Shown here piece by piece: positions 1-31,459 of a stretch of 42,147 bases of DNA; position 1 is the first letter of the stretch, and every line of letters starts with the position of its first letter. The DNA is from Parcubacteria group bacterium CG1_02_44_31 (GTDB lineage: Bacteria; Patescibacteriota; Minisyncoccia; UBA6257; Brennerbacteraceae). The stretch covers positions 1-42,147 of the forward strand of contig MNWK01000024.1 of the NCBI GenBank assembly GCA_001872485.1. The letters are read 5' to 3'. Below the pieces are notes generated by a model. The model was not told the origin of the DNA. It ran no database searches and saw nothing but the letters and a program-made list of their open reading frames with translations. The position numbers were made by a program, and so were the translations under genes.

Positions 1-524
1 TTTATACTCAAGTAACAAATCCAAAACTTAAAAATATTAAAAGTCCGTTATAATAAGTAAATTGTAAGTTTTTTAGATGATTTATAAAAGATGGCGCAAA
101 AAATTTTTAAAAAACTTTTGGCGAGCGAGCAAAAATTGGGGGAGTTCAAGGGGAGGAAAATTTTTGCCCGCGAGCCGTCAGCAAAATTACGAAGTAATTT
201 TGCGTCAATCAGCGTCAGGATTTTGCTGGAAAAAAGTTCTGACATCGTCTAGTAGACACCACTTTATACTCAAGTAACAAATCCAAAACTTAAAAATATT
301 AAAAGTCCGTTATAATAAGTAAATTGTAAGTTTTTTAGATGATTTATAAAAGATGGCGCAAAAAATTTTTAAAAAACTTTTGGCGAGCGAGCAAAAATTG
401 GGGGAGTTCAAGGGGAGGAAAATTTTTGCCCGCGAGCCGTCAGCAAAATTACGAAGTAATTTTGCGTCAATCAGCGTCAGGATTTTGCTGGAAAAAAGTT
501 CTGACATCGTCTAGTAGACACCAC
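1..524. repeat. Perfect tandem direct repeat, 2 x 262 bp (1-262 and 263-524)
   Basis: The two units read identically by eye (tttatactcaagtaacaaatcc...gtctagtagacaccac). Each unit contains two long hairpins (ggcgagcgagcaaaaatt / aaatttttgcccgcgagcc, and gcaaaattac-gaa-gtaattttgc). Copy 1 starts at the window edge, so the array may continue upstream. Confidence 0.9.
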
Positions 525-650
525 CTGGGGAGAATCGGACTCCAGCCCCTGCCTGCCGGCAGGCAGGTCGGCAACTTGCCCCGTTAAAAATCAACTCTGT
601 GGACTTGACGAGAATCGGACTCGTGCCTCCGCAACCCCGTATACAAACTT
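525..650 (-). other. Two orphan tRNA 3'-half-like fragments (T-arm with TCCGATT loop plus acceptor 3' strand)
   Basis: Minus-strand reads GGAG-TCCGATT-CTCC (527-543) and ACGAG-TCCGATT-CTCGT-CAAGTCC-A (600-624). Both have the same unusual T-loop as the adjacent tRNA-Ala. No matching 5' halves lie at tRNA distance. A 20-nt perfect palindrome cctgcctgccggcaggcagg (548-567) sits where a variable arm would be. Confidence 0.4.
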
Positions 651-651
651 G

Positions 652-722
652 TGGACTCAGGGAGAATCGGACTCCCGCCTCGGCAATGCGAATGCCGCGT
701 AATACCACTTTACTATGAGCCC
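652..722 (-). tRNA. tRNA-Ala (anticodon CGC), 71 nt, CCA not encoded
   Basis: The manual cloverleaf on the minus strand is GGGCTCA-TA-GTAA-AGTGGTA-TTAC-G-CGGCA-TTCGCAT-TGCCG-AGGC-GGGAG-TCCGATT-CTCCC-TGAGTCC-A. It has the G3:U70 Ala identity pair and discriminator A. The T-loop has C at position 55 instead of the near-universal U, which lowers confidence that it is functional. Confidence 0.65.
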
Positions 723-840
723 ATATAAGTCCACAAGCTTATTTACGGGGCGCAGTGCGAATGTTCCCAATTTGTATAAAAATCCTAAGATTTTTATCTA
801 CAAATTGCAATCCGTCTAAACGTAAATGGTGATGGACGGT

Positions 841-864
841 GTATTACCACTATACTACAAGCCC
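841..864 (-). other. Orphan tRNA 5'-half-like fragment (acceptor 5' strand plus D-arm)
   Basis: The minus strand reads GGGCTTG-TA-GTAT-AGTGGTA-ATAC. Its acceptor strand GGGCTTG is complementary (with G3:U70) to CAAGTCC of the orphan 3' half at 601-607. No T-arm follows within tRNA distance. Confidence 0.4.
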
Positions 865-900
865 TTCATTTTTAACGGGGTGAAAATGCCACGCTATACG

Positions 901-941
901 CCCCGTAGCGTCCTGAGCTTGTCGAAGGACTGCTACTGGGG
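901..941. repeat. 41-nt palindromic element with CCCCGTAGC...GCTACTGGGG ends
   Basis: The sequence is ccccgtagc-g-tcc...gga-ctgctactgggg. It lies directly after the D-arm of the orphan tRNA 5' half at 941-964. Its ends resemble the CCC(T/C)GTAGT termini of the window-wide repeat family. Confidence 0.6.
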
Positions 942-964
942 TAATACCACTTTACTATGAGCCC
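941..964 (-). other. Orphan tRNA-Ala 5'-half copy
   Basis: The minus strand reads GGGCTCATAGTAAAGTGGTATTAC, identical to the first 24 nt of the tRNA-Ala at 652-722. It is followed by the 41-nt palindrome instead of an anticodon arm. Confidence 0.5.
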
Positions 965-1096
965 GATGCGAATGCCTGTCTTTCGAAATCTTGATGAAGA
1001 CGGACCGCGTTCTACCCCTGCCCGCCCTTGGCGGGACTAGACCATAGTTCCAATTGCTGCCTGATTGTAGCGAACAATCGGACCTGAATCAACTAC

Positions 1097-1265
1097 ACCC
1101 TGTAGTAGAAATGCGACAGAATTTGATGCCGTATTTCCGATTCTATTTTATAAACAACGTAATCAACTCTCTATGGTTTATGCGTGTTTATTTATGAATT
1201 CTCTTGTTAAGGCAGTCGCATTTTTCCGCCAAAGGCGGATCTGCCTCTGGCATGACACTACGGGG
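1097..1265. mobile_element. MITE/REP-like element (family with ACCCTGTAGT / ACTACGGGG termini), copy 1
   Basis: The termini are accctgtagtag (1097-1108) and cactacgggg (1256-1265). The interior matches 23311-23508 in reverse complement and 31293-31455. This includes atcggaaatacggcat.aaattctgtcgcatttctac and ggcagtcgcatttttccgccaaaggcggatctgcctct.gcatgacac. Confidence 0.7.
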
Positions 1266-2269
1266 CATATAAGTTTTGACAAAAACGCGCCGAGTTTTTT
1301 CGGACTGTGACGAATCAGACTGCGACGAAGCAACGCATCTGCTTTTTGCTGCATATAAATACCGTTATCTAAAAAATTTCCTCCCAAAAACATCGTGCGC
1401 CCAATCACTTGTTTGCTTTTCCCTTTGAGTAAAATGGGATGCGACCGTTCTTTTTTAAAATACCTCAACAACAACGGCTCAACCGGTTCTTTATTGTTGC
1501 ACACCGCGACATCAACAACGCCATTTCCAATATATGATTCAATTTCTGACGCGAGCTGAAATGGCGTCCATCCATCGGTTTGCCCGAATTTACTCATCAC
1601 ATTTACAATCAGAATTTTTTTTGCTTTTGATTTTTTAAACGCGGCAACCATGCCTGAAACCAAAAACAACGGAATCAAACTCGTATATAAGTTTCCCGGC
1701 CCGACAATAATTGCGTCAGCATCCAGCATTGCGCGACGCGCTTTGGGATTTACGGTCAATTTCGGTTTGATGCAAAACTTTTTGATGCCAATTGCCTGAA
1801 TCACTTCTGCGGGCGTAATTGCGCGCTCTCCTGAAAGCACTGTGCCGTTTTTCAATGTCATTTCAAGCCGACCTTTATCAAGGGCCACGGGGATGATTTC
1901 ACCTTTGATTTTGATAATCTTTCCTATTTCCGCAATGCTTTGTTCAAGCGATCCGGACACTTTTTCCAACGCGCTCAAAAACAAATTGCCAAAACTGTGG
2001 CCGCGCAACCCGCCGTTTTCAAACCGATAATTCATCAATTTGCGGATTATTTCCGGTGCCTCGGAAAGCGCAACCATGCACTGCCTGATATCGCCCGGAG
2101 GCAAAACGCCGAGTTCATCGCGCAACACGCCGCTAGACCCTCCGTCGTCAGTCATAGCAACTATGGCCCTCAAATCAAACTGGGGGAAAACTTTTAACGC
2201 GGAAAGTACGGTAAAGACTCCTGTTCCCCCGCCCATTACAATTACATTTTTCTTTGCCCTGCGCGTCAT
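1178..2269 (-). CDS. yvcK: YvcK/CofD-family (UPF0052, gluconeogenesis factor-like) protein; last ~29 codons are encoded by the repeat element
   Basis: The 363-aa ORF has N-terminal VIVMGGGTGVFTVL and MTDDGGSSGVLRDELGVLPPGDIRQC motifs typical of the family. The C-terminal CPVVSCQRQIRLWRKNATAL... tail recurs in a non-coding repeat copy at 23311-23370. Confidence 0.85.
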   Translation of the reverse strand: MTRRAKKNVIVMGGGTGVFTVLSALKVFPQFDLRAIVAMTDDGGSSGVLRDELGVLPPGDIRQCMVALSEAPEIIRKLMNYRFENGGLRGHSFGNLFLSALEKVSGSLEQSIAEIGKIIKIKGEIIPVALDKGRLEMTLKNGTVLSGERAITPAEVIQAIGIKKFCIKPKLTVNPKARRAMLDADAIIVGPGNLYTSLIPLFLVSGMVAAFKKSKAKKILIVNVMSKFGQTDGWTPFQLASEIESYIGNGVVDVAVCNNKEPVEPLLLRYFKKERSHPILLKGKSKQVIGRTMFLGGNFLDNGIYMQQKADALLRRSLIRHSPKKLGAFLSKLICPVVSCQRQIRLWRKNATALTREFINKHA

Positions 2270-2351
2270 ATATCGTTATGCGACTAAGTATGCATATTAT
2301 ACTCTTTATACCGCATCTTGAAAAATCAATGCAGTATGAGATACTGTATGT

Positions 2352-3059
2352 ATGCCAACCAAGCATAAAGAACGCATAGTTATTTCGCTGGGCGGGTCTC
2401 TTATTGTTCCCAATGGTGGAGTCGACACGGAATTTCTCAAAAAATTCAATGCATTTATACGGGAAAAACTGACAGAAAACAAACATCGTCAGTTTTTTAT
2501 TATTGCCGGCGGTGGAGCAATTGCACGACACTACCGTGATGCGGCAAAAAAGATTTTAAACAAAAAAATTACCCGTGATGACCTTGACTGGCTCGGAATT
2601 CACGCAACACGCTTGAACGCGCATCTTATTCGCACAATTTTTCAAGACATCGCATACCCGCGCATCGTCAAACATTACGAAATAATTATGAAAATAACCA
2701 AACCAATTGTCATTGCCGCGGGATGGAAACCAGGATGGTCAACGGATTACTGCGCAACCGTTATATGCGAAGATTATCACGTCAAAACGCTTATCAATTT
2801 GAGCAACATACCGTATGCATACGATAAAGACCCGAAACGCTACAAAAACGTCAGGCCGGTTACCAGCATTTCCTGGAAAGCATTCAGAAAAATCGTTGGC
2901 GATACGTGGATACCGGGTATGAACTTTCCTTTTGACCCTATTGCAAGCAAAAAGGCGCAACGACTCGGATTACGGGTCCTTATCGTCAAGGGCGACGATT
3001 TCAAAAATCTCAATACGTTCTTCCACGCGGGAACATGTAAGGGAACGATTATTGAATAA
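2352..3059 (+). CDS. pyrH: UMP kinase, archaeal-type (amino-acid kinase fold)
   Basis: The 235-aa ORF carries IVISLGGSLI and FFIIAGGGAIARHYR motifs. Its length and motifs match the archaeal-type PyrH branch. Confidence 0.75.
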   Translation: MPTKHKERIVISLGGSLIVPNGGVDTEFLKKFNAFIREKLTENKHRQFFIIAGGGAIARHYRDAAKKILNKKITRDDLDWLGIHATRLNAHLIRTIFQDIAYPRIVKHYEIIMKITKPIVIAAGWKPGWSTDYCATVICEDYHVKTLINLSNIPYAYDKDPKRYKNVRPVTSISWKAFRKIVGDTWIPGMNFPFDPIASKKAQRLGLRVLIVKGDDFKNLNTFFHAGTCKGTIIE

Positions 3060-3061
3060 CC

Positions 3062-5737
3062 TTACACAACAAAGTTTACAATCTTTCCTTTGACAAACAC
3101 CACGCGCTTGATTTTCTTTGTTTCAAGCCATTTTGAAACTTTTGAACACGCTTGCGCTTGCTTTATCACTTCACTCTGCTCAGCATCAACAGAAATCGTC
3201 AACGTATCGCGGACTTTGCCCGAAACCTGAATTACATACGTCACGGTATTTCTCACGAGCACGGCAGGATTATATTTTGGCCATGGTTGCTTTTCAACAC
3301 GTGATGCATTGCGCATGCTCCATAATTCCGAAGCTAGATGCGGCGCAAATGGATACAAAAGCAATGTAAATATATTAAGAATTTTGTTCATATCCGTGTA
3401 CGCTATGTGCTCACGGTATTCAAGTAACTCGTTTTGAAATTCCATTAAGGCGGAAATAGCCGTGTTAAAACGCATATGCGAAATATCGTCTCCGACTTTT
3501 TTCACGGTCTGATGCATAAGCCGATGCGCGCGTTTTTTGATTTCCGCATTTGATTTTGCAATACGCTTTTTGGGAGCAAGAGATGCATGTTCAAACGCAA
3601 ATGAAAATACGCGGCTCAAAAACCGATGTACGCCCACAATGCCGTTCGTATCCCATGGCTTTGACGCTTCAAGCGGACCCAGAAACATTTCATACATGCG
3701 CAGCGTATCCGCGCCGTATTGTTTGATAATATCGTCCGGGTTGACCACGTTTCCGCGCGACTTGGACATTTTTTCCCCATCTGAACCCAAAACCATGCCT
3801 TGGTTTACCAATTTCGCAAACGGCTCTTTGTTAGGAACAACGCCGATGTCTTGCAAAAATTTATGCCAAAACCGCGCGTAAATCAAATGGCGCGTTGCGT
3901 GCTCGGTGCCGCCCACATAAAAACCAACCCCGCCTCCGCTAAAGCTACGGTGGACAAGCCCGCCTCCGCCAGAGTCTCTACGGCCAGTGGTTAACCAATA
4001 CTTCAAAACTTTTTGGTCCCAAAATAGCTTCGCGCGTTTTGCGGAAAGTTTAAGTTTATCTTGACCCAAAATAAATCCAAGATAATACCAGCACGAACCT
4101 GCCCATTGCGGCATAGTATCGGTTTCACGTTTAGCCGGGCCGCCGCACTTAGGACATTTCACACTAACCCATGTATCTATTGACGCCAAAGGCGATGCGC
4201 CTGTTCCTGTTGGTTCGTAATGTGTGACATTGGGCAATACAACTGGAAGTTTTTCTTCTGGAACGCCGATCCAACCTGGATTCATTACTTCACCAAGGGT
4301 AAAATTCAAGTTTCCAATTTTCCCGCCTGCGCCGAGGCTTCGGCGGGCAGGCAATTTCCAACAGTTCAGCCCTGAATGCAGTAATGGAACTCGGAATTTT
4401 GAATTCTCCACTCGTTTTTTACATTGTTCACAAAAAACGAGCGGGAACGGTTCTCCCCAATACCGCTGACGCGCAAATGTCCAATCCTGCAGTTTGTATT
4501 TTACTGCTTGTTGCGCGCTCATAAATGCTGCTATTTTGGGCGCAGCTTGTTTGACCGACAGCCTGTCAAACGGACCCGAGTGAATAAGCATGCCGGTCGC
4601 GATATCCGTATATGCGGAAGACAATGGTTCATGCGACTTGCCATCAGGTGAAATAACTTCGCGAATCGGCAAGTGGTATTTATGCGCAAACGCGAAATCG
4701 CGTTCATCATGCGCCGGAACTCCCATCACGGACCCGAACGCGTAGTCCATCAACACATAATCTGCAATCCAAATCGGAATTTCCTGTTTCGTAATCGGAT
4801 GAATCGCATACGCGCCGGAAAAAACGCCTGTTTTTTCTTTTTCCGCAGCGCGGTCCAAATCAGTTTTGCTTGCACCTTCGCGCATGTACAGCCGCACTTT
4901 TTCTTTTTGCTCAGGAGTCGTAATTGACTCAACCAACGGATGCTCGGGGGCAAGCACCACGAATGTCACACCATACAACGTATCAAGCCGCGTGGTAAAA
5001 ACCGGAAGCGTTTCACGAGAATTTTTAATGCGAAACGAAAATTCGTATCCAGTTGACTTGCCGATCCAATTGCGCTGCATTTCTTTCACGCTCTCAGACC
5101 ACTCAAGCTGTTTTAAATCATTCAAAAGCCGGTCAGCATACATGGTAATGCGAAGCACCCACTGCCGCATAGGTTTTCGCTCTATCAGAGATTTACAGCG
5201 CTCGCACCTGCCATTTTCCAAATCCTCGTTGGCAAGCGTCGTTTTACACAACGGACACCAATTAATGGGTTCATTTGATTCGTATGCAAGCCCGTGATGA
5301 AACATCTGTAAAAACATCCATTGCGTCCATTTGTAATACGCCGGGTCGCTTGTCGCAAGCTCCCGCGACCAATCATACGACAGCCCGACTGATTGTATTT
5401 GTTTTTTAAACCGCGCGATGTTCTTTTTCATTGCGACATTAGGATGGATTTTGTTTTGAATTGCGTAATTTTCAGCCGGCAGGCCGAACGCATCCCATCC
5501 CATGGGATGTAATATATTCCAGCCGTTCATGCGCAAAAACCGCGCATAGATGTCCGTTGCGGTGTATCCTTCCAAGTGCCCCACGTGCAATCCCTCACCT
5601 GAAGGATACGGAAACATATCCAAAATGAACATTTTTTTCGCAGTTCCGCTGTTTTTGGCGCGCCACGAAGAAAAACCGGATTTCTCCCATGCGCGCTGCC
5701 ATTTTTTCTCAATACGTGCAAAATCGTATTTTTTCAT
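3062..5737 (-). CDS. leuS: Leucyl-tRNA synthetase (with extra in-frame insertions)
   Basis: The 891-aa ORF has the class I signatures PYPSGEGLHVGH and KMSKSRGN. It also has the CP1/editing region, the Zn motifs CPLCKT/CERCKS, and YVGGTEHATRHLIYARFW. Confidence 0.95.
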   Translation of the reverse strand: MKKYDFARIEKKWQRAWEKSGFSSWRAKNSGTAKKMFILDMFPYPSGEGLHVGHLEGYTATDIYARFLRMNGWNILHPMGWDAFGLPAENYAIQNKIHPNVAMKKNIARFKKQIQSVGLSYDWSRELATSDPAYYKWTQWMFLQMFHHGLAYESNEPINWCPLCKTTLANEDLENGRCERCKSLIERKPMRQWVLRITMYADRLLNDLKQLEWSESVKEMQRNWIGKSTGYEFSFRIKNSRETLPVFTTRLDTLYGVTFVVLAPEHPLVESITTPEQKEKVRLYMREGASKTDLDRAAEKEKTGVFSGAYAIHPITKQEIPIWIADYVLMDYAFGSVMGVPAHDERDFAFAHKYHLPIREVISPDGKSHEPLSSAYTDIATGMLIHSGPFDRLSVKQAAPKIAAFMSAQQAVKYKLQDWTFARQRYWGEPFPLVFCEQCKKRVENSKFRVPLLHSGLNCWKLPARRSLGAGGKIGNLNFTLGEVMNPGWIGVPEEKLPVVLPNVTHYEPTGTGASPLASIDTWVSVKCPKCGGPAKRETDTMPQWAGSCWYYLGFILGQDKLKLSAKRAKLFWDQKVLKYWLTTGRRDSGGGGLVHRSFSGGGVGFYVGGTEHATRHLIYARFWHKFLQDIGVVPNKEPFAKLVNQGMVLGSDGEKMSKSRGNVVNPDDIIKQYGADTLRMYEMFLGPLEASKPWDTNGIVGVHRFLSRVFSFAFEHASLAPKKRIAKSNAEIKKRAHRLMHQTVKKVGDDISHMRFNTAISALMEFQNELLEYREHIAYTDMNKILNIFTLLLYPFAPHLASELWSMRNASRVEKQPWPKYNPAVLVRNTVTYVIQVSGKVRDTLTISVDAEQSEVIKQAQACSKVSKWLETKKIKRVVFVKGKIVNFVV

Positions 5738-23231: not shown

Positions 23232-23310
23232 AATGTTCCAAATTCAAAACAGTTTGGAATTTGTGGTTTGAGATTATTCATGATTCAAGATTCAAGATGT
23301 GCTATAATAT

Positions 23311-23508
23311 ACCCTGTAGTGTCATGCCAGAGGCAGATCCGCCTTTGGCGGAAAAATGCGACTGCCTTGCAAAAGAATTCCATGCATGTTACATATAAGT
23401 CTTCGCAAGAACAAAGTTCTTGCGAAGACAAGGTTCCGCGGACTTCTTGTTATATAAAATAAAATCGGAAATACGGCATAAAATTCTGTCGCATTTCTAC
23501 TACAGGGT
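23311..23508. mobile_element. MITE/REP-like element, full copy with internal hairpin-B, forming the leader of trpS
   Basis: The termini are accctgtagtg (23311-23321) and ctactacagggt (23497-23508). The interior is homologous to 1097-1265 (inverted) and 31293-31455. A tataat box sits at 23303-23308 just upstream, and the trpS ATG is 9 nt downstream. Confidence 0.7.
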
Positions 23509-23517
23509 ATAGCTATT

Positions 23518-25564: not shown

Positions 25565-28500
25565 TTATTTATTGATTCCAATCCACAGTTTTTCTTTGCC
25601 ATCGGCCATTTCAGTTTCATACGCAACTTGATGTTTCTCAAAAATGACTTCTCGTGCTTTTGTTTCTTTTTTAAGCAATTCTACGTACTGTTTTAAAAAC
25701 GCAAACGCACCCAACGCATCGTAGTACAACGTAATCGTATCCTGCGGCAAAAGCCCCATTGCCTGCCTGCCTTCTTGAACAGTTCGTACGAGCTCACGCA
25801 CAATGCCTTCTTGCTTTAACTGCTCCGTGATTTCCGTATCAAGCCCAATTGCGCTGTCTCCTTGACTATCAACGACACATGATGATTTTTCAGAAATACG
25901 GTTAACAAATCGTATTGTTTTTACATTCACTTCATCAGCCAAAATCGCGCACAACTCTTCAGACAATGCTTGTTTTTGCGCAATTTCCACAACACCCAAT
26001 GGTTGACGCACTTTAATCACAGCTTTTGCGCGAAGCGCCAAAATGCGCTCCGCAAGCGCGCGAATTATTTTCATATGATCAAGAATTGGAGCAGAACCGT
26101 TTATGTTTTCAGGTGGTTCGGCTCCGCTCTTCATAAGTGCGGGCCAGGATGCCATATGCACGCTTTCCGGAATCTGGTTTTGGTCTTGCAAACGTCTTCG
26201 AATTTCCTGCCATATGTGTTCTGCCAAAAACGGAACAAATGGAGAAAACATAATTACAAAATCAAGCATCATGCGCGCGCAAAACGCAGACACGTTCATG
26301 AGTTCATCGGCATTTTCCGGCTTTTGAAATCTGCGGCGCGACCTGCGAATATACCAACGTGACAAATCATCAATGAATTCCTGCAATGCCCTGCTTGCTT
26401 CATATACACGATACGCATCCATATGGTTTTTGACAGTTGTTGAAAGCAATGCCATACGCGCATTCATCCATTGGTCCATAACTTCCGTTGCTTGTGCTTT
26501 TGCCATATCTACCTTTTGGGGCGCGTACGTTTGCCAAAACTTCAAAACATTCAGTATGGTCATTAAATCCTGATGCGCGCGGCCTTTCATGTCTTTTTCG
26601 GAAAAACGCTTATACTCTCCAGGGTCGTTTAACGTGTAAAAATACCAACGCAATGCGTCAGCGCCGTATGTGTTAAATATTTTCCATGGATTTATGATAT
26701 TGCCTTTGGATTTGGACATTTTTTCTCCATGCTCATCCATAACATGCCCCATGGAAATAACATTCAAAAACGCAGGACCAACGTCAAGCAAGGTACTGAT
26801 AGCCAAAAGCGTATAAAACCATCCGCGCGTCTGGTCAATCGCCTCGGAAATGTATTGTGCAGGAAACGGCAATTTGTTTCCCATAAGCTTTGCATACGCA
26901 ACTGGTTCGGCTCCGCTCACCACAAGTGGTTCGGCTCCGCTCACCACAAGTGGTTCGGCTCCGCTCACCACAAGCATATTCGGGTCCTGACCAAGTTCAA
27001 TCTGTTCAAACGGGAAATGGAATTGCGCAAACGGCATTGCGCCAGAATCAAACCAACAATCAATCACATCCGTGACGCGATGCATAAGGGCTCCGCATAC
27101 AGGGCATGCGCATACAACCGCATCCACAAACGGGCGGTGCAAATCAACTTCACCTTGGTCGTTATACGGAAAATTTGGCGAGGTGAACTTTTTCATTCCT
27201 GCCAATGCGAATCCGTCTATTTGCCATGTCTGGCTAAGCGAGTGCGTAACAAGTTTTGATTCCAAAAGCCACAACGGGTCTCCGTGGCTGATAATCGCAA
27301 TGGTCTTGCCATGATATTTCGCATCGTACTCGCGTACAACCGCAAGCATCCGTATTTGCACGTCTGATAAACTTTCTCCATTTTCAGGTTTTTTTGAAAA
27401 CAGCGCATCCAAAGATTCTGTTTTTGTCGCATGATAAAATGCGTCGTATTCGGATTCGGGTTGATACGCATATATGCCGCAATTAATTTCGCGCAACCGT
27501 TCATCATATAAAAGTTCTGCATTGGGAAATTGCTTATGTAAAATCTCTGCTGTTTGCCTGGTACGCGCCAAATCCGAACTGATAATCATATCAATATGCG
27601 TATCCCTCATAGATTCGGCAAGCAGCCGCACTTCTTGAATTCCTTTCTTGGTCAGGATGCTGACCATATTTTCTTTTTCTGGCCATGGAGCCAAATACTT
27701 TTCCACATTGGACCGGGACTCGCCATGCCGAATCAACACATACGTATTCGGTTGATACGCATTGCGCGATAAATCCTGAAGCGACCCTATTGCAAGTTTG
27801 TGCGTAGGATTGCGGTCGCACACCCATATCGGAAGCGGCGTTCCCCAATACCGCTCGCGGGAAATCGCCCAATCCTTCACATCCTTCAGCCACTCGCCGA
27901 ACCTGCCTTGTTTGAGATGCTCGGGCACCCAATGAATCAATTCGTTATTTTGAATCAAGCGGTCTTTCAAAACACTCATGCGAATAAACCATGATTGATG
28001 CGCATAATACAACAAGGGTTCATGGCACCGCCAGCAAAACGGATAGGTATGCGTAATAGTTTCGGTTTTATACAGCACGCCATTGTCTTTGAGCCATTGA
28101 CGAATGGCCGGGTCTGATTTTTTCGCGGGCTGATTAGCCCATAACGCAACATCCGAAATGAAATTGCCTTGCGCGTCCACCGTGTGGTATTCGGGCAATG
28201 CATAGCGTTTACCCAAATCATAATCATCAATACCGTACATAACAGCAGTGTGCACGATACCTGTTCCTTCTGTTGCAGTGGCAAAACTCGCTGGCAAAAC
28301 TTGAAATGCGTTTTCAATATTTTTCGGATTCGCGTTTTTGATATACGGAAACATCGGCTCGTACCGCATACCAACCAAATCAGAACCGCGCGATTCCCGG
28401 ATAATCTCATACTCATCCTGCAACACCTGTATACGGTCTTTGGCAATAATGTATGTCGTGCCATCTGTGGTGAGCGGAGTCGAACCGCCTGTGGTGAGCG

Positions 28501-29284
28501 GAGTCGAACCACTATTTTTTTGCTTGAGCCATACATACGCAATATCAGGATGAACCGCCAACGCCACATTTCCAGGCAAAGTCCATGGAGTTGTGGTCCA
28601 AACCATAAAATACGTGTCAGGGTGTTTGCTATCCGCTACTTTGAATTTCACATACACGGATTCTTCTTGCGCATCCTCGTACCCTTGCGCAACTTCATGC
28701 GACGAGAGCACAGTCCCGCATCTGGTGCAATACGGAACGACTTTGTAATCCTGCTGGAGTAATCCTTTATCCCATGCTTTTTTCAAAATCCACCACAGCG
28801 ATTCCATATATGACGCGTCATAGGTAATATACGGATGCTCCAAATCCAACCAATATCCGATGCGTTCGGTAAACTTATCCCATTCTTGTTTAAACCGCCA
28901 CACGGATTGTTTGCATTTTGCGTTAAATGCAGCAATGCCGAATTGTTCAATGTCAGCTTTTGTTTTCGTTTTGATTTCCTTTTCAATTTGAAGTTCAACC
29001 GGAAGCCCGTGCGTATCCCAGCCCGCTTTGCGCAACACATTATATCCTTGCAAGGTTTTATACCTGCACACAACATCCTTAAATACGCGCGCAATCACAT
29101 GATGCAGCCCGGGACCTGCGTTCGCGGTCGGAGGACCTTCAAAAAACACGAATTGCGGACGATCGGTTTGCGCGTTCACACGCTCAAATATCCGTTGTTT
29201 CTTCCAAAAATCCAAAATACGCTGTTCCAAATCCGGAAACGGCGAGGTTTTGTCTTGGTGCGTGTTTTCTTTTTTCATACGCAT
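25565..29284 (-). CDS. ileS: Isoleucyl-tRNA synthetase with an inserted histidine-phosphatase domain and in-frame repeat insertions
   Basis: It has FFEGPPTANAGPGLHHV (HIGH), the editing domain TTTPWTLPGN, WAISRERYWGTPLPIW, DCWFDSGAMP, DQTRGWFY and KMSKSKGN. The ORF-track start is 29329. The canonical N-terminus (MRMKKENTHQDKTSPFPDLEQRILDFW) starts at the ATG at 29284 or 29278, which avoids overlap with argS. Confidence 0.95.
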   Translation of the reverse strand: MRMKKENTHQDKTSPFPDLEQRILDFWKKQRIFERVNAQTDRPQFVFFEGPPTANAGPGLHHVIARVFKDVVCRYKTLQGYNVLRKAGWDTHGLPVELQIEKEIKTKTKADIEQFGIAAFNAKCKQSVWRFKQEWDKFTERIGYWLDLEHPYITYDASYMESLWWILKKAWDKGLLQQDYKVVPYCTRCGTVLSSHEVAQGYEDAQEESVYVKFKVADSKHPDTYFMVWTTTPWTLPGNVALAVHPDIAYVWLKQKNSGSTPLTTGGSTPLTTDGTTYIIAKDRIQVLQDEYEIIRESRGSDLVGMRYEPMFPYIKNANPKNIENAFQVLPASFATATEGTGIVHTAVMYGIDDYDLGKRYALPEYHTVDAQGNFISDVALWANQPAKKSDPAIRQWLKDNGVLYKTETITHTYPFCWRCHEPLLYYAHQSWFIRMSVLKDRLIQNNELIHWVPEHLKQGRFGEWLKDVKDWAISRERYWGTPLPIWVCDRNPTHKLAIGSLQDLSRNAYQPNTYVLIRHGESRSNVEKYLAPWPEKENMVSILTKKGIQEVRLLAESMRDTHIDMIISSDLARTRQTAEILHKQFPNAELLYDERLREINCGIYAYQPESEYDAFYHATKTESLDALFSKKPENGESLSDVQIRMLAVVREYDAKYHGKTIAIISHGDPLWLLESKLVTHSLSQTWQIDGFALAGMKKFTSPNFPYNDQGEVDLHRPFVDAVVCACPVCGALMHRVTDVIDCWFDSGAMPFAQFHFPFEQIELGQDPNMLVVSGAEPLVVSGAEPLVVSGAEPVAYAKLMGNKLPFPAQYISEAIDQTRGWFYTLLAISTLLDVGPAFLNVISMGHVMDEHGEKMSKSKGNIINPWKIFNTYGADALRWYFYTLNDPGEYKRFSEKDMKGRAHQDLMTILNVLKFWQTYAPQKVDMAKAQATEVMDQWMNARMALLSTTVKNHMDAYRVYEASRALQEFIDDLSRWYIRRSRRRFQKPENADELMNVSAFCARMMLDFVIMFSPFVPFLAEHIWQEIRRRLQDQNQIPESVHMASWPALMKSGAEPPENINGSAPILDHMKIIRALAERILALRAKAVIKVRQPLGVVEIAQKQALSEELCAILADEVNVKTIRFVNRISEKSSCVVDSQGDSAIGLDTEITEQLKQEGIVRELVRTVQEGRQAMGLLPQDTITLYYDALGAFAFLKQYVELLKKETKAREVIFEKHQVAYETEMADGKEKLWIGINK
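27185..27748 (-). other. Histidine-phosphatase (PGAM/branch-1) domain embedded in IleS (about aa 528-715 of the long ORF)
   Basis: The motifs are YVLIRHGESRSN (RHG motif), ISSDLARTRQTAEIL, DERLREINCGIY and IAIISHGDPL (second catalytic His). The domain is inserted between IGSLQDL and DLHRPFVD, which are contiguous in canonical type-2 IleS. Confidence 0.8.
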
Positions 29285-31016: not shown

Positions 31017-31292
31017 AGAGTATTTATGTATTGTACCATGTAGGTATAAAAAATCCCTTCATAACCGAAGGGCTTGCTTCTATACCATAATATCAAAACC
31101 CCCGGGTCAACACCGAATGCGAATCGCACGGATAATAATGGAGGGTTGAAATATCATATTGATATCATACAAATCAATCCAGTAAAAGTCAAATACTTGT
31201 AAGTAAAACGGCTTTGATTCATGCGTATTACTTACGTAAGTTATATAGTAAAGATTGTTACAATATATAACGATCGTAACATAATGTAACAT

Positions 31293-31455
31293 CTGATGCT
31301 GTATTTCTGACTTTATTTTATAAACAAAAAGTCCGCTAGGCCTTGTCTTCGCAAGAACTTTGTTCTTGCGAAGACTTTACTATTTGGTTACTTTTGCTAA
31401 GGCAGTCGCATTTTTCCGCCAAAGGCGGATCTGCCTCTAGCATGACACTACGGGG
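31293..31455. mobile_element. MITE/REP-like element, copy lacking a clear left terminus
   Basis: It contains tgatgctgtatttctgactttattttataaacaa, hairpin-B (31345-31375), tttactatttgg and ggcagtcgcatttttccgccaaaggcggatctgcctctagcatgacactacgggg. It is co-linear with the reverse complement of 23311-23508. Confidence 0.65.
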
Positions 31456-31459
31456 CATA

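Follow-up and report, generated by a model that had tools for sequence, protein, structure and literature searches.

Parcubacteria group bacterium CG1_02_44_31, a member of the candidate phyla radiation (CPR), has a genome assembly of 527 kilobases (kb) in 37 contigs that is 94% complete (labelled G000 here; other G and L labels denote the genomes of relatives in the same order and loci within them). The stretch of DNA considered here, referred to below as the window, comprises the first 42,147 nucleotides (nt) of the 43,557-base contig C32 (MNWK01000024.1). Close to its start lies an intact gene for an alanine transfer RNA (tRNA-Ala) that is surrounded by halves of other tRNA-Ala genes; the pieces follow a strict order on one strand, and two nested pairs of inverted repeats bracket the tRNA and the half-pairs. 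We call such an arrangement a nest, number its layers from the intact gene (layer 0) outward, read layer coordinates 5' to 3' on the minus strand, and count tRNA positions along the intact tRNA-Ala.

Anatomy of the tRNA-Ala nest

Layer 0 is the complete tRNA-Ala(CGC) at 722-652(-), where an earlier note made from the sequence alone had placed it. ARAGORN calls the gene (651-722), and the covariance model Rfam RF00005 accepts its cloverleaf at 652-722(-) with 61.4 bits against a gathering score of 29. ARAGORN and Infernal arrive at the same total of 38 tRNAs in the assembly, and this is the sole alanine tRNA among them; the second tRNA-Ala with a normal T-loop that the note proposed looking for is not in that set. 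The inverted repeats drawn around the gene in the note are present as arms of 23 nt that are 87% complementary (repeat search): the left arm (CCCCGTAAATAAGCTTGTGGACT, 728-750) lies 5 nt upstream of the gene, the right arm (635-657) overlaps its final 6 nt, and the inner cassette that they delimit measures 116 nt (750-635). Just past this cassette (634-630), the TGCG of a layer 1 loop fragment recurs over 4-5 nt with one mismatch and may, judging from the letters, be a target duplication. Given the inverted repeats and this possible duplication, transposition of the innermost cassette in the manner of a miniature inverted-repeat transposable element (MITE) is possible.

Around the inner cassette lie the parts of a second gene, layer 1. 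Its 5' part (864-841; acceptor strand GGGCTTG and D arm, nt 1-24) matches the intact tRNA at 20/24 positions (E 0.006), and its 3' half (634-600; nt 37/38-73, with T arm ACGAG/CTCGT and acceptor strand CAAGTCC) matches nt 37-61 at 22/25 positions over 634-610 (E 3e-5). These two matches come from short-word BLAST on the minus strand of 1-1400, and the comparisons with the intact tRNA given below are of the same kind. Both halves had been seen before, the second only as 624-600; it was also picked up as a perfect orphan T arm in a scan for such arms. The complementarity claimed for the two acceptor strands is plain to see, with GGGCTTG (864-858) pairing with CAAGTCC (606-600), G3:U70 included. 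The 5' strand of the layer 1 anticodon stem is not recoverable, a hairpin-rich filler (840-766, with hairpins at 839-812 and 807-768; repeat search, folding and sequence) standing in its place, and an anticodon-loop fragment (CATTCGCACTGCG, 765-751) abuts the inner cassette, 763-752 matching nt 29-40 at 11/12 positions. The 864/634 half-pair is bracketed by the outer inverted repeat (579-594 / 865-880; 16 nt, 94%), found by repeat search, whose left arm (CCCCGTTAAAAATGAA) occupies 880-865 and whose right arm, together with CAAG, occupies 594-575. The layer 1 cassette runs from 880 to 575, that is, 306 nt.

Relative to layer 0, layer 1 carries five double, compensatory pair changes (6:67, 7:66, 13:22, 49:65, and 50:64), and no pair of its acceptor, D, and T stems is broken by the changes. 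The two layers are therefore alleles that evolved separately under selection, not a copy and its decaying twin. The unit 884-575 folds as a helix within a helix (-120.5 kcal/mol, z -8.0), which is expected by construction because of the inverted repeats. Single excisions of layer 1 in silico give no ARAGORN tRNA call. A scan with two excisions calls a "tRNA" in 4,530 of 14,400 boundary combinations, with nearly any anticodon, and is uninformative because intact acceptor, D, and T arms suffice for an ARAGORN call.

Layer 2 opens with a 5' part (964-941, nt 1-24) that is identical to layer 0, as previously noted (24/24, E 7e-10). After its D arm comes a 40-nt hairpin element (940-901), the palindrome that the note had put at 901-941; it is polymorphic in the population, and the outer tRNA-Pro on contig C14 carries an element like it at the same tRNA position. 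The 5' strand of the layer 2 anticodon stem and its loop (GCGTGGCATTTTCA) can be read at 894-881. The loop reads TTTTCA|T, not TTCGCAT, so that the alanine anticodon is gone from a body that has G3:U70; the TTTTYA form of this loop also occurs in G007 and G018. The anticodon parts of the outer layers of the window are damaged, and alanine-decoding tRNAs cannot come from them.

The outermost 3' half (574-523; BLAST and sequence) consists of TTGCCGA (574-568, identical at 7/7 positions to nt 37-43), a palindrome (567-548), and a T arm with five acceptor nt (547-523), in which 547-528 matches nt 44-63 at 19/20 positions (E 8e-6). It corresponds to the half that had been placed at 543-527. One change breaks its first T-stem pair, and its acceptor end is missing, cut by a 262-nt repeat. 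On the other side of the stack, a third older alanine tRNA gene, beyond at least two, is probably present as layer 3 (approximately 1051-966), seen as a 5' half only. Its blocks (1047-1036, 1016-1007, and 976-967; BLAST and alignment), with inserts of 19 and 30 nt between them, match nt 5-36 of the tRNA-Ala(CGC) of the same-family genome G004 at 32/32 positions, and 976-966 matches nt 27-37 of the intact tRNA-Ala of the window at 11/11.

The dead halves contain hairpin inserts (940-901, 1035-1017, 1006-977, 839-812, 807-768, and 567-548), which are carried by four outer pieces. The last of these is a 20-nt perfect palindrome, CCTGCCTGCCGGCAGGCAGG, with matches in 14/40 relatives by hand count. 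It lies, by coordinates, 11-17 nt upstream of open reading frames (ORFs) of the GIY-YIG nuclease family in G009, G030, G035, and G039, and in G035 it is found at the corresponding site (44|45) of a dead tRNA-Ile piece. It may represent a very small hairpin that is mobile or associated with a nuclease. Serial disruption of tRNA genes by small palindromic elements, one of three interpretations offered in the earlier note, thus describes these inserts, one of them polymorphic, but not the main architecture, in which complete tRNA cassettes sit in the anticodon region, layer on layer.

With any metagenomic assembly, one should ask whether such a layout is an artefact, e.g., a chimera put together from strain variants of a single tRNA locus. 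The window does begin, at a contig end, with two perfect tandem copies of the 262-nt unit (1-524, repeat search), which truncate the nest. The unit also stands once at the end of contig C7 (22177-22435, 259 nt, 100%), about 215 nt past a tRNA-Phe; the assembly breaks at this repeat, and the tandem at the window start may or may not be real. Several strains also coexist in the source environment. A search for public runs containing the organism returned 24 DNA runs from 24 studies, all groundwater or aquifer metagenomes. Contig pieces from such runs, with 0-1 differences, bridge 496-708, 693-929, and 913-1125; they stem from four runs of four different studies as coded, which may include the source sample of the genome itself, and their support is not fully independent. 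The form without 890-940, i.e., without the hairpin (joint 889->941), appears in 4/4 runs at depths near those of the main form, and contigs of related strains hold an uninterrupted tRNA-Ala (8 differences) directly between inverted-repeat arms of the outer type (joints 725->868 and 591->680). Moreover, the copies in the stack are diverged, not collapsed, and analogous nests are present in many other assemblies. Because contig pieces from four runs show the same layout, it is not an assembly artefact; we take the nested layout as confirmed and give a chimera almost no credence.

Nests at other tRNA genes and in relatives

In this genome, 9/38 tRNA loci carry tRNA fragments within approximately 200 nt: Ala, Ile(GAT), Thr(CGT), Thr(GGT), Gly(CCC), Pro(UGG), Glu(UUC), and two Met. 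The complete tRNA brought by the insert is cognate in 8/9 of these loci. The outer Ile(GAT) and Thr(CGT) genes are flawless, have the same anticodon as the inner genes, and are split exactly between nt 35 and 36, and on contig C28 a tRNA-Met sits inside a Lys(UUU)-like gene that is also cut between nt 35 and 36. When the inserts are removed in silico, ARAGORN calls tRNAs for all three of these outer genes. As in the alanine stack, the inner and outer copies of Ile and Thr differ by compensatory stem changes.

At their start the inserts are rich in C (CCCGCC, CCCCG) and at their end in G (GGCGGG, CGGGG), and CAAG often comes next. The tRNA cassettes of the window have terminal inverted repeats (23 nt, 87%; 16 nt, 94%), as MITEs do, and such cassettes are single per tRNA species in the genome, not many dispersed copies. 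The outer window cassette and the inserts in Ile, Thr, and the Lys-like gene have no target duplication at their flanks. A junction exactly at 35|36, again without target duplication, is seen for Ile, Thr, Lys-like, Glu, Ser, and, in G038, Ala; the other Ala nests show a TTTTYA...CAAG junction instead, and the innermost cassette of the window shows TGCG. Smaller pieces of tRNA genes also occur. A 13-nt copy of the 3' end lies past a tRNA-Met on C9, and at 28473-28513(-) of the window two tandem 24-nt units resembling a T arm plus acceptor strand (GGTTCGACTCCGCTCACCACA) stand inside a coding region.

Relatives have both filled and empty loci. The five same-family tRNA-Ala(CGC) loci inspected in detail are without halves (5/5), and in the syntenic locus of G002 one tRNA-Ala comes immediately after the same upstream gene, which indicates that this arrangement is the ancestral state. 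Among the best nine tRNA-Ala loci of the order, six have neither halves nor a nuclease gene, L003 has a GIY-YIG gene and a 3'-end duplicate, and L004 (G033) and L006 (G018) have the same ...TAACGGGGCAAG|TTGC junction with 3' halves, L006 also with nested 5' halves. This junction, which is that of the outer repeat of the window, thus recurs in other families of the order, in G018 and G033, and also in G007. There, the same type of cassette sits inside an outer gene near-identical to that of the congener G038, whose own insert at 35|36 holds an inverted-repeat-bounded, intact GIY-YIG ORF of 85 amino acids (aa) and then an inverted-repeat-bounded tRNA-Ala(CGC). The single tRNA-Ala of G002, the different inserts of G007 and G038, and the strains with an uninterrupted tRNA in the same runs show that, among close relatives, some alleles are filled while others are empty.

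The Ile nest is found again in G025, where the leader is identical at 27/27 positions and the outer 3' half has a broken T stem and an anticodon-stem deletion, and in G010, where the junction is the same and the outer acceptor strand has a 1-nt deletion. Hence, outer copies undergo decay, with leader and trailer either retained or recently shared. The pattern AACGGGGCAAGTTGC, searched with up to 1 mismatch in 401 genomes of the order, gave 27 matches in 24 genomes against approximately 16 for the reversed control (a hand tally), and a tRNA 3' half follows it in 5/20 fetched loci (G000, G018, G032, G033, and G102; the exact matches in G277 and G116 are not among the loci inspected). For a census, the pattern is therefore a poor tool.

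Partial tRNA duplicates of 100% identity are found at L037 and L038, and they bear on the idea of a purely local origin, in which hairpin-driven replication slippage or partial tandem duplication of one tRNA gene built the nest and unrelated MITEs inserted afterwards. A genome rich in hairpin repeats and MITEs offers the material for this, and 964-941, which matches the inner gene at 24/24 positions, has the look of a local copy. The five compensatory stem changes between layers 0 and 1, however, and the like changes in the Ile and Thr pairs, mean that the copies diverged as working genes. Leader and trailer are, moreover, shared across families (27/27 in G025), and the congeneric pair G007 and G038 has different inserts in near-identical outer genes. 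We consider a local origin unlikely.

Proposed origin of the nests by tRNA-carrying cassettes

The explanation that we favour, at a probability of roughly 0.7, is that the nest arose through the insertion, at the DNA level, of hairpin-bounded cassettes that carry a tRNA gene, the outer copies being pseudogenes and the proposed driver a selfish "break-and-replace" cycle. The starting point would have been an original tRNA-Ala(CGC) downstream of a YvcK-like gene. A short cassette (left arm, complete tRNA-Ala(CGC), and right arm) would have cut this gene in its anticodon region, the incoming tRNA taking over the function and both outer halves turning into pseudogenes. The new copy would then have been struck again, at least twice more, until only 722-652 was left intact, the older halves flanking it in order and being interrupted more and more by small hairpin inserts.

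Such cassettes may spread as selfish elements. One that cuts an essential single-copy tRNA gene would persist only if it brought a spare, which would explain why the inserted tRNA is nearly always cognate. Spread would most probably start with a break at the tip of the anticodon hairpin: six kinds of tRNA (Ile, Thr, Lys-like, Glu, Ser, and Ala) share the fixed 35|36 position, which would point to recognition of the anticodon hairpin rather than of a sequence. The best candidate for the cutting enzyme is the UPF0213-type GIY-YIG nuclease encoded in fuller versions of the insert, and the tRNA-only cassettes of the window could be non-autonomous, degraded or stripped versions of these. One-sided forms, i.e., a tRNA with one orphan half, may result from recombination between direct repeats. 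The inner tRNA would be transcribed through the stack and released by ordinary tRNA-processing enzymes. A scan of 450-1350 for promoters and terminators did not exceed chance, with 2 promoter-like sites where 1.2 were expected.

The case for the nuclease comes from other loci. PF01541 (GIY-YIG) is matched in 60/61 genomes of the order, mostly by several small ORFs each, and these genes are linked to tRNA genes and to nests. A tRNA lies within approximately 205 nt in 13 of the 30 best GIY-YIG loci, the remainder of those loci of about 3 kb holding only 2 further tRNAs, and 5 of these 13 tRNA-linked loci have partial tRNA duplicates. One of them consists of a tRNA-Ser(GGA) 5' half ending at nt 35, two GC hairpins, a GIY-YIG ORF, and the full tRNA; in the Ser locus L037, the GIY-YIG ORF lies inside the insert. 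On C17 of the genome itself, a tRNA-Glu 5' half that stops at nt 35 and two GC hairpins precede a frameshifted GIY-YIG ORF, on the other side of which lies an intact tRNA-Glu. The proteins resemble UPF0213 proteins (PDB 1zg2, E 1.5e-7). In NCBIfam, no family was found for the G038 GIY-YIG protein, and the intact protein encoded on C33 of the genome itself is a sub-threshold match to a group I intron endonuclease (22.1 bits against a cut-off of 56). A wider conjecture, which we regard as doubtful, would make the UPF0213 GIY-YIG proteins structure-guided homing nucleases that cut any tRNA gene at the anticodon hairpin tip, between nt 35 and 36, and drive the break-and-replace cassettes, a class not recognised before, which would destroy an essential tRNA gene and at the same time deliver a foreign allele; the nests would then be a fossil record of successive allele sweeps, and much of the tRNA set of the CPR would have been turned over horizontally.

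A second candidate driver is the pair of Y1_Tnp ORFs in the genome, which resemble IS200 and REP-associated tyrosine transposases (RAYT; REP, repetitive extragenic palindromic) and measure approximately 228 and 260 aa (C16:772-1455 and C19:13105-13884). One CCCCGT site lies approximately 320 nt from the C16 ORF and none is found on C19, and there are no cassette-type hairpins beside either gene; Y1 transposases are nevertheless a possible driver and could mobilise hairpin elements. Hairpins initiated by CCC are modestly enriched near tRNAs (11/73 within 250 nt of a tRNA, a zone that makes up 4.2% of the genome), with most of them elsewhere.

Several points weigh against the cassette model and should be kept in mind. 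The nest in the window has no nuclease, transposase, or integrase gene (the ORF list shows no endonuclease ORF in 500-1100), and the agent is deduced from what other loci and other genomes contain. The GIY-YIG proteins (85-101 aa) belong to UPF0213, consist of a single domain, and show no recognisable DNA-binding domain, and we know of no activity for proteins of this type. Three outer genes (Ile, Thr, and Lys-like) are still perfect, which fits either recent insertion or a functional interrupted gene, and the borders are not uniform across nests, so more than one mechanism may act. For an old layer, one would not expect 964-941 to match the inner gene at 24/24 positions; our guess is gene conversion up to the hairpin insert, or else a recent event. 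The 3' piece at 547-523 ends in CAGGT, which does not pair with the GGGCTCA acceptor strand of 964-941, and this CAGGT matches the acceptor strand of the syntenic tRNA-Ala in the same-family genome G002. Lastly, the public runs found for the organism include no RNA run among the 24 listed.

If the outer genes were real split or intron-containing tRNAs, which the earlier note had thought the less likely of its options, the stack would be transcribed, the inner tRNA excised, and the outer exons held by the helices and ligated (e.g., by RtcB), giving several tRNAs per locus. The outer Ile, Thr, and Lys-like genes are indeed flawless after in-silico excision, the junctions lie in the anticodon loop, and an RtcB ligase (556.8 bits) has been retained in this 0.53-Mb genome. 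The exons would be kept in contact by the inverted repeats, a role that leaders play in the split tRNAs of archaea according to a 2014 review (PMC4033280). Against this reading, the tRNA splicing endonuclease PF01974 has 0 matches in the 94%-complete genome, with four archaeal controls positive, and no Intron_gpI match at E<=10 occurs in 1-1600 of the window, whose inserts of 116 and 306 nt are largely tRNA. RtcB was found in 13/41 relatives (G000 included), and in none of the nest-bearing genomes G007, G018, G033, G035, and G038.

Splicing of layer 2 would yield a tRNA of alanine identity (G3:U70) with a UUC/UUU-type anticodon loop (TTTTCA|T), and layer 1 has no pairing anticodon stem and, as described earlier, gives no tRNA on single excision. 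The outer Ile copies homologous to that of the genome are broken in G025 and G010, and the insert always brings a complete tRNA, cognate in 8/9 loci, which is what an insert that is not spliced needs. Drawn by eye, the junction of the Ile nest is an internal loop of 8 x 3 nt that lacks a central helix; that of the C28 nest can be drawn like a bulge-helix-bulge, the cut implied leading ARAGORN to call a tRNA-??? with a four-base anticodon. The ARAGORN and Infernal runs suggested in the note did recover the intact tRNA-Ala, but intron mode added only a forced "tRNA-Met with 208-nt intron" on C28. For want of a splicing endonuclease and a group I match, and with a layer 2 loop that is not that of alanine and outer copies decayed in relatives, we judge splicing to be quite improbable.

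The remaining suggestion of the note was that the halves are duplications of attachment (att) sites. In its full form, the halves would be attL/attR-type scars of serial site-specific integration at the tRNA-Ala gene, left by integrase-bearing islands or prophages that were later lost. Integrative elements reportedly insert into tRNA genes and bring along a substitute for the part that they displace, the att duplication (Reiter in 1989 and Williams in 2002 are said to have shown this), and 3' halves downstream of an intact tRNA are, again reportedly from Williams in 2002, the classic signature of such elements. Short 3'-end duplicates do occur in the lineage, namely, the 13 nt at the C9 tRNA-Met and copies of 14-18 nt at L040 and L003, but the latter flank GIY-YIG genes, not integrases. 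Elements that carry a 3' part only do not give the upstream 5' halves (864-841, 964-941, and approximately 1051-966), whose acceptor strands pair with downstream 3' halves. The inserts are 116 and 306 nt long and bordered by inverted, not direct, repeats; the ORF list of 1-4000 contains no integrase, and the only PF00589 (tyrosine integrase) matches of the genome are on C27. What can be kept of the suggestion is a mobile insert that restores its target, whereas the matched 5' halves, the inverted-repeat borders, the size of the inserts, and the lack of an integrase at the locus speak against att duplications, which we think most improbable here. In general terms, the nests share with these elements an insertion within a tRNA gene, often in the anticodon loop, a function kept by the tRNA sequence brought along, and an orphan piece left behind. 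They differ in that the insert brings a whole tRNA gene, measures only approximately 0.1-0.6 kb, is bounded by inverted repeats, leaves both 5' and 3' orphan halves, and has no integrase.

REP and REPIN hairpin repeats are reportedly mobilised by Y1 (RAYT) transposases, a finding that is said to go back to Bertels and Rainey in 2011 and Ton-Hoang in 2012. Like these repeats and like MITEs, the genome has short, dispersed, non-coding hairpin or inverted-repeat units, some with GTAG by the stem, along with two Y1_Tnp genes and a MITE family. Unlike them, the tRNA cassettes are not multicopy, mostly lack a target duplication, and keep to a fixed tRNA position, and no CCCCGT hairpins flank the Y1 genes.

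In a passage of the 2014 review (PMC4033280), the tRNA genes of bacteria are called "surprisingly uniform", self-splicing introns being the sole notable interruption, and a passage of a 2023 meeting report (PMC10714607) mentions, for the CPR, only introns in ribosomal RNA (rRNA). Compared with the group I introns in bacterial tRNA anticodon loops covered in the review (PMC4033280), some of which have homing-endonuclease genes, the nests have the anticodon-loop site, an ORF of an endonuclease family in fuller versions, and a patchy presence among relatives in common, but their inserts have no group I core, go down to 116 nt, nearly always carry a cognate tRNA, and sit between outer exons that decay. 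The free-standing GIY-YIG homing endonucleases of phage tRNA clusters, e.g., T4 SegB, are likewise small genes beside tRNAs that seem to move with neighbouring tRNA sequence (PMC13096335, PMC2988022). In our case, the proteins are single-domain UPF0213 proteins of cellular genomes, unlike Seg-type enzymes with a DNA-binding domain, and the tRNA is nested in a tRNA. The multi-intron, split, and tri-split tRNAs of archaea, as treated in PMC4033280 and PMC10714607, resemble the nests in having several interruptions and complementary leaders and trailers that could join halves; the differences are a bacterial host, the absence of a detected splicing endonuclease, the decay of the interrupted genes, and a complete spare tRNA in the insert. 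A full-text literature search, limited to main texts, turned up no account of bacteria, CPR members included, in which one tRNA gene is nested in another, and the layout has apparently not been described in the literature searched.

About one-quarter of the tRNA loci (9/38) in this 0.53-Mb genome hold older tRNA remains, and the alanine locus alone holds three or four generations. If the cassette model is true, a selfish element would become indispensable to its host, since it breaks an essential gene and provides the replacement, and there would be a route for the horizontal replacement of tRNA alleles in CPR bacteria, with the layers serving as dated snapshots of past alleles. A candidate function would be suggested for the widespread UPF0213 GIY-YIG proteins. 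In annotating such genomes, one would then treat orphan halves and "intron-containing" tRNA calls (e.g., the C28 call by ARAGORN) as likely fossils.

Other features of the window and genome

The atypical T-loop to which the earlier note drew attention, with C55 in place of U55, is present but is not special to the locus: the C55 form (TCCGAnn) occurs in 9/38 tRNAs and is a trait of the genome. No match to TruB (PF01509) was found in the 94%-complete genome, and 14/14 control genomes were positive; the trait is plausibly linked to loss of the U55 pseudouridine synthase and a relaxed U55.

Upstream of the nest, a MITE copy occupies 1098-1265(-), with the terminal repeat CCCYGTAGTGAGAATGCGAC and 4-bp target duplications. 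It belongs to a family of the CCCYGTAG type, approximately 130-175 nt long; its terminal inverted repeat (CCCYGTAGTGAGAATGCGAC) has 20-22 nt, and its 4-bp target duplications are A/T-rich. Nine full or near-full copies were aligned; further copies in the window are at 23307-23512 and 31291-31459, and others are on other contigs. The long form of the element carries a 31-nt module (GCCAGAGGC plus a hairpin), the 30-nt core of which matches many relatives. The copy beside the nest encodes the last approximately 29 codons (1178-1265) of the YvcK-like ORF at 1178-2269(-), and the G002 homologue stops shortly past the LIRH..KLG..FL motif that both share, with the tRNA-Ala directly behind it.

A bacterial transfer-messenger RNA (tmRNA) was called in the window by ARAGORN. 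Elsewhere in the genome, the RtcB gene is full-length (C31:7170-8477), and ARAGORN places a tRNA-Ile with the anticodon UAU at C7:12131-12205, which is also the top tRNA by Infernal (74.7 bits). A UAU anticodon is an uncommon way to read AUA in bacteria.

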